Assembly: GCA_041742355.1 (NCBI GenBank)
Contig: JBGSIV010000202.1
Coordinates: 1 to 18,217, forward strand
Length of the DNA: 18,217 nt
Origin: Candidatus Zixiibacteriota bacterium
GTDB lineage: Bacteria > Zixibacteria > MSB-5A5 > GN15 > FEB-12
Reading direction: 5' to 3'
A program made the position numbers. Shown here piece by piece: positions 15,001 through 18,000 of the stretch (its first letter is position 1; every line of letters begins with the position of its first letter).

Positions 15001-18000
15001 TCCGACGTGCGGGTGGGCCGTCGAATTTCATCCTTGATTGTAGAATCTATACCTGTTTATTGGGATTGATCTGTGGAGACCGTGCTTTTCGACCGAAACA
15101 TCCGAGGGATTCGATGCCATACAACTTCGCTCTGACCGGCGCTTCCGGATTTGTGGCGCCGCGACATCTGAAAGCCATCAAAGACACCGGCAATACGCTC
15201 GTGGCGGCTGTCGATCCGCACGACAGCGTGGGCGTGCTCGACGGCTACTTTGACAAGGTGGCTTTTTTCACCGAGTTCGAGCGTTTTGACCGCCACATCG
15301 AGAAGCTCCGGCGGCTGGGACCGGAACGGGCCATCGACTACGTGTCGATCTGCTCCCCGAACTATCTCCACGACGCCCACTGCCGCTTTGCCCTGCGGGT
15401 TGGCGCCAACGCAGTCTGCGAGAAGCCCCTCGTCCTGAATCCCTGGAATTGCGACGCCCTCGAGGAACTTGAGATCGAAAGCGGCAGGAAGATCTACACC
15501 ATCCTCCAACTCCGGGTTCATCCCGCCCTCATCGCGCTCCGCGACCGCCTCCAGAATCTCCCCGCTGGCGCCAAACGGGATGTCCGGCTGACCTACATCA
15601 CCTCCCGCGGCCAATGGTATCTCGTGTCGTGGAAAGGGCAGATCGAGCGGTCGGGCGGCCTTGCGACCAATATCGGGATCCACTTTTTCGATCTGCTCAT
15701 GTGGTTTTTCGGCAGCGTCCAGCATTCAGAGGTTCACCTCGCCCAGCCGCTGCACACCGCCGGATTCCTCGAACTCGAGCGCGCCCGGGTTCAGTGGTTT
15801 CTCTCGATCGATCAGAATGACCTGCCCGACGAAGCTCGGGCGAAGGGTCAGCGAACGTATCGTTCGATTACGATCGATGGCGAGGAGATCGAGTTCTCGG
15901 AGGGTTTCACCGACCTGCACACGGTGGTCTACCGCGAAACGCTGGCCGGCCGGGGTTTCGGCCTGCAACACGCCCGACCGTCCATCGAACTGGTGCATGA
16001 CCTTCGCGTGGCCACCGCCGTCGGGATCAACGACAATGCCCATCCGCTGGTGAAGAAGCTCCGCAGCTGATTCAAGAAGCACTTGAAAATACGAAAGCCG
16101 CCGATCGGTAGGATCGGCGGCTTCTTTCATTCAATCGGAATGCTGCGCCCGACCTACTTGTGGATCTTCCGCAGGAACTCCTCGACCTCGGGAACCCCCC
16201 CCTGGAAGATCAGGTAACCGTTGTAGGGCTCGCGGGCCGTAGTCTCGTCCCCCACTGGAGTCAGCATGAGCCGCTTCACTTCGGCCGGATCATCGGTCTG
16301 CCCGAGCGCCCACGCCAGCTTGATGTAGGCCACTTCCGGCAGCATGTTCTCGGTCGGGATGATCCCGAGGCTCATCAGATCGCGGCCGGTGTCGTACACG
16401 AACATGTGCACGTAACCCCACAGCGTCTGCACGGTCATGTAGATGTGGATCCCGGCTTTGGCCGCTCGTTCGATGGCCGGGTACACCGGCTTGTTGATGT
16501 GCCCCAGCCCGGTGCCGGCGATCACGATCCCGCGGTAATGGTTCTCCCTCAGGGAATCGATGATGTCCGGCATCATGTTCGGGTAGTAGTAGACCATCGC
16601 CACTTTCTCTTCGAAGTACGGCAGGATCGTGACCTCGCGATCCTTGCGGCGGCGGTTGTAGTTCTCCCGCAGCGGCGTGATCTTCTCCCGGTTTACCATC
16701 GCCAGCGGCGTCTCGCCGATAGTCCGGAAGGTCGAACGGTACGACGAGTGCATCTTCCGCACGCGCGTACCGCTGTGGAGCAGGCCATACTCGTCCGAGG
16801 TTGGCCCGAACATGCAGACCATCACTTCGGCAATATCGGATTCGGCCGCAGTCTTGGTGGCGTGAATGAGATTGAGCGCGGCGTCCGATGACGGACGGTC
16901 GCTTGAACGCTGCGACCCGACCATCACAATCGGGATCGGCGATCCCTGCACCATGAACACCAGGGCCGCGGCCGTGTGGTGCATCGTGTCGGTGCCGTGA
17001 CCTATAATGATACCGTCGGTGCCGTTCTCGATTTCACGCCCGATCGCTTTGGCCAGTTCCATGTACTGGTACGGCCCCATGTTTTCGCTGAAGACCGCAA
17101 ACAGCTTCTCGGTGCTCAAGTTGCAGATATCGGCCAGTTCCGGAACCGCGCCATACAGTTCCCCCGGCGAAAAAGCGGGAATCACCGCGCCGGTGCGGTA
17201 GTCGAGGCGCGAGGCAATCGTCCCACCGGTGCCGAGCAGTTTCACGGCGGGCTTGCCCGGCGACACCGGGAACTGCTTCTCCGGGATCTTGTAGTGGGCC
17301 TCTTTGTAGCCGTGCTCCTTCATGTCGAGAATGGTCGCGACATCGATCCCGATGTTGTAGCCGGTGATCAGCTTGAGCACGAGGTGGCGGTCGTCGTCGT
17401 TGATCGACCGCGGCAGGAGAATGCCGCTGAACACACCCCGCGTAGTGCTGATCTCGGTTTCGCACCAGACCCTGATATTGTGCTTCTCGAGCACTCCGCG
17501 CGCCGCCCCCCGGTATCCCTTCATGACATCCTCGGTCATCGCGACACCTCCTTCTCGACTTTGGCGCGGAGGGTGTCGAACGGCACATTCCCGAGCGCGG
17601 ACGGTCGAAGCTGGCCCATGATCCACTGTATTGCAGCATCCGGCGCCTTGGATCGTTTGTGTCTCCTGAACCGGCCGAACAGCGCCGGAATCGACGCCAG
17701 CACCTCATCGACAGTCCGCGGGCGGTAGCCGATTCGCCCGAGCGCGGCTTCCGGATTCACCGCCGGGCTGGCGATCATCATGGGCAACAGCTCCTTGAGT
17801 ATCTCCCGGTCGAGCTTCCGTTCGTGCACAAAGGCGAAGAGTTGATACAGCCGTTCGCGGTCAATCTTCGTCCGTCGACCGAGAGTCCCCTCGATGTTCT
17901 TCAGCAGATGGCCAAACAGTTTGCCGACCCACGACGGGCTGCAGTCGAACTCGGCGATCACCCGCTCCATCAGCGGCACCAGGTTCTTCCGCAAGATGTA

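Follow-up and report, generated by a model that had tools for sequence, protein, structure and literature searches.

The Candidatus Zixiibacteriota genome studied here encodes an intact, host-like and strongly conserved GatDE, as the survey's finding had it, in a single gatE-gatD operon divided over two contigs. Bacterial GatDE genes already carry database labels, NCBI using the name GatD in both Zixibacteria and Acidobacteriota, and they form a large conserved bacterial clade that breaks the rule that GatDE is archaea-only. In the sampled genomes bacterial GatDE is accessory and never the sole route to Gln-tRNA, and the reading of its role that is favoured here, though tentatively, is that it amidates Glu-tRNA(Gln) under certain conditions, as an accessory enzyme beside GlnRS and AsnRS. 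The host locus alone adds little; the value lies in a phylum where GatB and GatE occur in each of their four possible combinations, which shows what GatDE does not do.

A gatE-gatD operon divided over two contigs

The window (the whole stretch of 18,217 nucleotides that was analysed) contains gatD and the end of gatE, and the rest of gatE lies on contig C201:

16154-17539, minus strand: gatD, 461 aa and stop-free, with a GatD_N domain and a type I asparaginase fold; this subunit releases the ammonia
17536 to ~18072, minus strand: 3' third of gatE, 178 aa that comprise the helical and tail domains; positions 449-628 of the 630 of NF003107; its stop overlaps the gatD start
18072-18217 (last 146 bases), minus strand: foreign leucyl aminopeptidase fragment, sitting where gatE sequence is expected
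Contig C201, 13944-15376, plus strand: 5' two thirds of gatE, 477 aa, running off the contig end

The full-score GatD that had been reported at 16154-17539 stands: its GatD_N and type I asparaginase domains come with profile scores above the equivalog cut-offs (NF003217, 494.5 bits against 310; TIGR02153, 484 against 324). The motifs GGT, HGTDT and RKMH are unchanged in an alignment to 2D6F_A and 1ZQ1_A, and the catalytic Thr and the Thr-Asp-Lys set are present, with the same motifs as 2D6F_A; the roles of these active-site residues are those given in the accessible part of PMC2330236.

GatE on C201 is, as had been noticed, cut by the contig end, and its missing C-terminal 178 residues were found in the window. 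The C201 part scores 357.7 bits with TIGR00134 (cut-off 319.55) and, being a fragment, 416.7 with NF003107 (cut-off 456), against 118 with the GatB profile TIGR00133 (cut-off 314.8); the part in the window gives 23.7 bits with GatB_Yqey, below the cut-off of 27. By comparison with full-length relatives, 13 GatE residues are missing in the assembly gap between the contig ends. The genome holds one GatE N-part and one C-part only, each half being unique, and in a same-genus genome the genes of both contig ends flank an intact gatE-gatD. Thus, the position of the two gatE parts at contig ends, together with this synteny, identifies one operon split over two contigs.

Codon use is host-like in both gatD and gatE, the GC3 of gatD being 0.85. 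The aminopeptidase fragment has a GC content of 0.49 and a GC3 of 0.52, versus 0.64 and 0.87 in the corresponding part of the host's pepA; at the protein level the two are 52% identical. Most likely the contig is chimeric over these final 146 bases, and they do not belong to the GatDE system. This chimeric end beside gatE is what could be said for the view that GatDE here is contaminating archaeal DNA, an assembly error or a relic in decay. However, same-genus synteny, host-like codon use, the wealth of related stretches in species genomes (see below) and invariant catalytic residues all argue against such an origin, which has a negligible probability; the intact operon in well-assembled relatives refutes all three.

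Distribution and origin of bacterial GatDE

The host has GlnRS, one GluRS, AspRS, AsnRS, one AsnB-family gene, two glutamine synthetases and an archaeal-type AsnA homologue. The earlier statements that GlnRS and AsnRS are present and that tRNA-Gln is of the U1-A72 type only are correct: both tRNA-Gln genes, and also tRNA-Asn, have U1-A72, and they do not have the extra D-loop bases found in tRNA-Glu(UUC) and tRNA-Asp. GatA and GatB had been described as absent, and this too was confirmed, since no Amidase-family match exists in the host genome and GatE is the sole match of a GatB_N search. Nothing in the host has the make-up of GatCAB, that is, an amidase GatA and a GatB that lacks the insertion domain and has a 3-10 turn and a Lys-rich tail.

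In six relatives the amidotransferase genes lie in an operon, whole or partial, of the form glnA-gatA-(hydrolase)-gatB-purN-purC. On host contig C95 the hydrolase, a 194-aa gene and purN adjoin, and gatB is gone from this ancestral site. Because these flanking genes adjoin within one contig, gatB has been deleted from the host and is not hidden by an assembly gap. The gatA site falls at the end of C95, and the absence of host gatA rests on the genome-wide search. The earlier concern that a missing GatCAB might lie in the unassembled part is therefore dispelled for gatB, and met for gatA by that search only. The 7-contig same-genus genome, which had been noted to lack GatA, indeed reads glnA-hydrolase-purN, with both gatA and gatB gone, and gatB is absent at that site in all four further GatE-only genomes checked.

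According to the survey's finding, GatDE had taken the place of GatCAB for the necessary amidation of Glu-tRNA(Gln) and had been vertically kept in Zixibacteria. The true deletion of gatA and gatB in the host and five relatives checked, alongside an intact, host-like GatDE, fits such a replacement, but another same-genus genome retains both GatDE and GatCAB, and the distribution across the phylum largely refutes it. Among 131 Zixibacteria genomes (at least 90% complete, hand-tabulated), 36 have GatE only, 28 GatB only, 48 both and 17 neither, two being unclassed; for six of the 'both' and one of the 'GatE only' genomes the second match was assumed, not listed. AsnRS is present in 129 of the 131 and GlnRS in 108, three of the GlnRS-less genomes being taken from family tallies. 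All 23 GlnRS-less genomes have GatB (15 GatB only, 7 both, 1 unclassed), and GlnRS is missing from 15/28 GatB-only genomes but from 0/36 GatE-only and 0/17 'neither' genomes. Where GlnRS is present, GatB is missing from 36/77 genomes with GatE versus 17/30 without (p=0.40; kin are not independent). Thus GatB loss tracks GlnRS, not GatE: it is GlnRS that permits the loss of GatCAB. GlnRS-less genomes with both amidotransferases come from three genera only and give little power to judge whether GatDE could free GatCAB, so that, the genomes also being related, the distribution shows what happens and not what GatDE could do. Replacement with vertical inheritance is very unlikely.

Outside this sample, 50 genomes were reached from 50 of the 80 closest GatD loci, at least two of them duplicating phylum-sample genomes and some having doubtful record titles. 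GlnRS was found in 49/50 and GatB in 5/50, the one GlnRS-less genome also lacking GluRS, and 47/48 had an AsnRS-sized class II match. In all five genomes whose gatE has no adjoining gatD, gatD lies elsewhere in the genome. The idea that GatDE compensates for a missing glutamine synthetase was rejected, as this enzyme is present in 131/131 Zixibacteria.

A scan of species genomes for GatD gave at least 598 related stretches. The best 80 of these are 70-82% identical, gatE adjoins in 76 of them, and their record titles name Zixibacteria, Bacteroidota, Cloacimonadota, Aminicenantes, Bipolaricaulota and others; no flanking gene is common across phyla in these 80 closest loci. In a 37-row GatE tree the 18 Zixibacteria rows require 7 changes, and a topology that makes them monophyletic is rejected (p-AU 0.0007), although five of the six rows of the host's family group together. 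Vertical keeping within the phylum, as the survey's finding had proposed, is contradicted both by this result and by the close GatD in records of other phyla. Instead, the two genes of this distinct bacterial clade would have moved together, as a cassette, among lineages that are for the most part anaerobic. Searches for GatD on plasmids (at E 1e-60) and for GatE in viral contigs found none. The notion that the cassette is accompanied by a special tRNA-Gln with A1-U72 was rejected on the host tRNAs, the metagenome loci and the readable tRNA-Gln genes (30 loci, all classes), which have U1-A72 in 27/27 cases.

Bacterial-type GatE forms one clade (98/99 with 40 rows and 261 catalytic-domain columns; 100 in another tree). 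Whether it was inherited or transferred from archaea had been left open for want of a phylogeny. In the trees now built, the clade has a cluster named Heimdallarchaeota as its sister (95/81), and mixture-model trees place it beside an Asgard sequence; a first FastTree, whose root was weakly supported (0.77), had let it branch outside the whole of archaeal GatE. A tree that keeps the archaeal GatE together as a single clade is not rejected (p-AU 0.135), and the archaeal rows came from the best 150 matches of a bacterial query, so that a transfer of GatDE from an Asgard archaeon is favoured but not demonstrated, and an older root stands unrejected. The position of the root bears on the presence of GatDE in the last common ancestor.

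What bacterial GatDE may amidate

The equivalents of Methanothermobacter His15, Glu157 and Glu184, named as Mg ligands in the accessible part of PMC2330236, and the Arg of RQD are invariant in 144/144 aligned GatE, and the Mg-ligand motifs are seen in the host's own N-part, within its cradle domain. The 86 complete GatE read at 100 loci all reach full length, at 616-698 aa. A model of a same-genus GatE (pLDDT 95) shows all four domains, namely cradle, insertion domain, helical domain and tail, with 1ZQ1_C and 2D6F as best matches. The AspRS-like insertion domain, absent from GatB, is kept, being aligned through and folded in the model; Pfam GAD gives it 14.9 bits in the close clade (cut-off 23.4) and scores above cut-off in deeper members. 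The asparaginase site of GatD and the Mg/ATP kinase site, insertion domain and full-length tRNA arm of GatE are all kept.

The helical and YqeY-like tail domains are at full length yet diverged. At a matched cradle identity of 0.55-0.65, tail identity is 16% among bacterial versus 36% among archaeal GatE. The glutamine of KGVQ, which has a role in reading the first tRNA pair, is present in 37/39 canonical archaeal and 8/8 Asgard-like rows; the same site in 73 bacterial loci has Ala in 47, Ser in 11, Pro in 6 and Gln in 4. The tail motif GXXAXGX, implicated in telling tRNA-Gln from tRNA-Asn (PMC2811023, accessible part), is lost in bacterial GatE. The arm nevertheless retains its M-G...G core and folds confidently in the model. 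As judged from these alignments, the tRNA-binding arm is kept but drifting and the archaeal tRNA-Gln-specific marks are lost.

In 80 metagenome loci representing deeper members of the bacterial clade, gatD follows gatE in 63, and genes for GlnRS, GluRS, AspRS or AsnRS are found in none. Glutamine synthetase occurs in nine, directly upstream and co-oriented in seven, directly downstream in one and at 2 kb in one (eight in all directly adjoining and co-oriented), and the GatE of these linked loci are 44-90% identical to each other. Near the first 100 loci, glutamine synthetase was found in one and GluRS in two, gatE lying 1.6-2.9 kb upstream of gltX and tRNA-Gln(CUG) in 2/100.

The reading that fits best, while it may well prove wrong, remains an accessory amidotransferase for Glu-tRNA(Gln). 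GatD would hydrolyse Asn or Gln, as expected from its family, and pass ammonia to GatE, which would phosphorylate and amidate the acidic residue on a U1-A72 tRNA. The substrate would most likely be Glu-tRNA(Gln) supplied by a GluRS that is still relaxed. When free glutamine is short, this would open a second way to Gln-tRNA(Gln), starting from Asn or by repair of mischarged tRNA. Such a role, tied to nitrogen supply and not to the main charging route, would explain the constant presence of GlnRS or GatCAB, and also GatDE beside GatCAB. According to the available text of PMC2330236, archaeal GatDE takes Asn as well as Gln, and mesophilic GatCAB prefers Gln; the two systems would then be non-redundant in the 48 'both' genomes. 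The reading draws on the job of GatDE in archaea as a family prior, on the invariant catalytic residues and a four-domain model nearest to archaeal GatE, and on the retained insertion domain, believed in archaea to hold GluRS and to keep AspRS out (PMC2943598). The gatE loci near gltX and tRNA-Gln(CUG) and those adjoining glutamine synthetase can also be counted for it.

The synthetases are equivocal. GluRS of GatE-only genomes interleaves with GluRS of GlnRS-less relatives, which must be non-discriminating, and this was counted in favour of Glu-tRNA(Gln). However, GluRS of close relatives with neither amidotransferase is very similar, so that the enzyme may well discriminate and leave little substrate. 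An Arg at what is presumably the equivalent of GluRS Arg358 is present in all 63 rows, GlnRS-less genomes included, and does not separate the genome classes. Further against Glu-tRNA(Gln) stand the near-constant GlnRS of GatDE genomes in both samples and the generality of the gltX-tRNA-Gln link in Zixibacteria, the two gatE neighbours being one family. With glutamine synthetase supplying the donor and GlnRS present, making Gln from Gln on tRNA gains nothing. No bacterium is known to encode both Gln-tRNA routes, according to the accessible part of PMC4206432.

The same source describes bacteria with GlnRS, AsnRS and GatCAB that use the amidotransferase for Asn, and GatDE may likewise be an Asp-tRNA(Asn) amidotransferase, or a dual-specific one used as such: glutamine from glutamine synthetase would feed GatD, whose ammonia would let GatE make Asn on tRNA when asparagine cannot be scavenged. 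The host tRNA-Asn resembles tRNA-Gln in its U1-A72 pair and D-loop, the tail motif tied to discrimination between the two is the one lost, and glnA-gatE-gatD operons mirror the glnA-gatA-gatB operon of Zixibacteria. AsnA was found in 0/5 GatDE genomes and an AsnB equivalog above cut-off in 0/5, both tests having no GatDE-free relatives as control, and the host's AsnB-family gene is surrounded by exosortase and polysaccharide genes. On the other side, the host has its archaeal-type AsnA homologue, which is rare in Zixibacteria (the profile search gave mostly AsnRS matches), and AsnB-family genes are missing less often from GatE-only (7/36) than from 'neither' genomes (7/17). Nor are genomes with neither amidotransferase scarce, 17 being seen and ~15 expected if the two were independent. 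The Gly of non-discriminating AspRS, as in P. aeruginosa, occurs in 14/15 GatE-only rows but also in 12/13 rows without an amidotransferase (47/51 rows readable), and fails to separate the classes. It is absent from AspRS of GatDE-bearing Cloacimonadota and Bacteroidota-type genomes; the latter have Lys at this anticodon-loop position, as in E. coli, in 12/12 rows (17/20 fetched were readable), which weakens the Asn alternative there and was counted for Glu-tRNA(Gln). Given also the retention of the insertion domain said to bar AspRS, an Asp-tRNA(Asn) role is plausible but unlikely.

A looser tie to tRNA has also to be considered, in which GatDE would serve nitrogen metabolism, taking ammonia from Asn or Gln to amidate free Glu or Asp or some other carrier. 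The divergence of the tail while GatD stays 70-88% identical would suit this, as would the metagenome loci with glutamine synthetase and no aminoacyl-tRNA synthetase gene. A second glutamine synthetase is found in 77/84 GatE-bearing versus 22/45 GatE-free Zixibacteria, a difference confounded by kinship and genome size. One GatE-GatD fusion, P0045, lacks the arm altogether, but its active-site motif is damaged and it may be decaying. No member of the family is known to act without tRNA, and the full length of all complete GatE, with the confidently folded arm and its conserved core, makes a tRNA-free role quite improbable.

Taken as a class, these departures would amount to a retooled GatDE, coupled to glutamine synthetase and making Asn on tRNA(Asn) or amidating an acceptor free of tRNA. 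No earlier GatDE would have had its substrate changed in this way, and its spread through anaerobic bacteria would go back to one ancient source: an Asgard archaeon, or else a lineage of the same age as the split between bacteria and archaea. This is possible, if somewhat doubtful.

Comparison with known amidotransferases

GatDE is called archaea-only in the accessible parts of PMC8762117, PMC9499178, PMC8007984 and PMC2811023, and reviews up to 2022, as far as their text is available, treat it as an archaeal signature explained by co-evolution with archaeal tRNA-Gln. A literature search, with subscription papers mostly outside its reach, found no paper reporting bacterial GatDE, and the accessible parts of PMC9976931 and PMC13433404 do not mention it. 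The bacterial clade offers a natural experiment on the way in which tRNA identity shifts for an amidotransferase. If it acts on Glu-tRNA(Gln), these would be the first bacteria with both Gln-tRNA routes; if on Asp-tRNA(Asn), it would be the first GatDE making Asn.

The bacterial enzyme shares with archaeal GatDE, a Glu-tRNA(Gln) amidotransferase (Methanothermobacter thermautotrophicus 2D6F; Pyrococcus abyssi 1ZQ1), both subunits, the order of domains, the asparaginase and kinase active sites, the insertion domain and the short loop replacing the 3-10 turn of GatB, and the archaeal proteins are its best sequence and fold matches. In contrast to them, it occurs in a GlnRS-bearing host whose tRNA-Gln has U1-A72, not A1-U72; it has RKQYLDGSIP for the archaeal RKxVIDGSNT, has largely lost the KGVQ glutamine (kept in 4/73 loci) and the tail motif, and has an arm about half as conserved. 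Archaeal GatDE is the sole route to Gln-tRNA(Gln), in a host without GlnRS, whereas the bacterial form is optional and not essential. Asgard GatE (clusters named Heimdallarchaeota, Thorarchaeota, Odinarchaeota and Hodarchaeales) is like the bacterial form in its RKxYxDGS(I/V)P motif but unlike it in keeping the KGVQ glutamine and, mostly, an archaeal tail. A further known parallel is the GatCAB found beside GlnRS and AsnRS in Bdellovibrio, Deinococcus and Thermus (PMC4206432, accessible part), likewise an amidotransferase redundant for charging and with an accessory role on U1-A72 tRNA. That enzyme has an amidase GatA and no insertion domain, in contrast to the asparaginase GatD and insertion of bacterial GatDE, and its Asn role has been shown, whereas for bacterial GatDE such a role is a candidate.

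Synthetase-like domains and tRNA genes

Class II synthetase catalytic domains that stand without an anticodon domain are encoded elsewhere in the same genome, at the following loci:

contig C127, 484-1926, (-): class II synthetase catalytic domain without anticodon domain, resembling archaeal-type asparagine synthetase A
contig C39, 1140-2144, (+): class II synthetase catalytic domain without anticodon domain, AsnRS-like

The product of the C127 gene scores 153.8 bits against the profile for archaeal-type asparagine synthetase A, below the cut-off of 309. A transposase is found near this gene, contig C127 is lower in GC, and homologues are rare across the phylum. 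The gene for tRNA-Glu(CUC) (contig C169, 22891-22964) apparently has a G1-U72 wobble pair, not G1-C72. One genome has a tRNA-Asn gene (L113:46-121) immediately 3' of a gatD that stands alone; both lie on the same strand.

GluRS and amidotransferase genes in other genomes

Three genomes (L119, L123, L127) lack GlnRS and carry GatB together with GatE; their GluRS is distant, lies on a long branch and was apparently imported. The single-contig genome G085 (loci L086 and L136) has two GluRS genes of near-identical type, one of which adjoins gatE and a tRNA-Gln(CUG) gene. The 943-aa GatE-GatD fusion protein P0045, which is missing the entire tRNA-binding arm and has altered active-site motifs, may be a real fusion or a product of decay.

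The gatA and gatB genes of the phylum (L338-L343, six relatives) are placed in one operon with glnA, purN and purC, and no gatC-sized gene was recognised beside them in these operons. In 6 of the 80 metagenome loci (L279, L286, L289, L295, L316 and L320) the neighbourhood of gatE-gatD includes an MFS transporter gene, of either the L-lactate or the oxalate/formate type.

Other genes in the window

The window also carries:

14910-16070, (+): Gfo/Idh/MocA-type oxidoreductase gene, convergent with gatD
7852-11626, (+): multi-CxxCH cytochrome gene, large probable beta-barrel protein gene and second cytochrome gene

The oxidoreductase gene is conserved in both same-genus genomes compared, and there is no sign of a functional connection with gatD. 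The cytochrome/beta-barrel/cytochrome gene order is conserved in one same-genus genome, and the set resembles a porin-cytochrome conduit.
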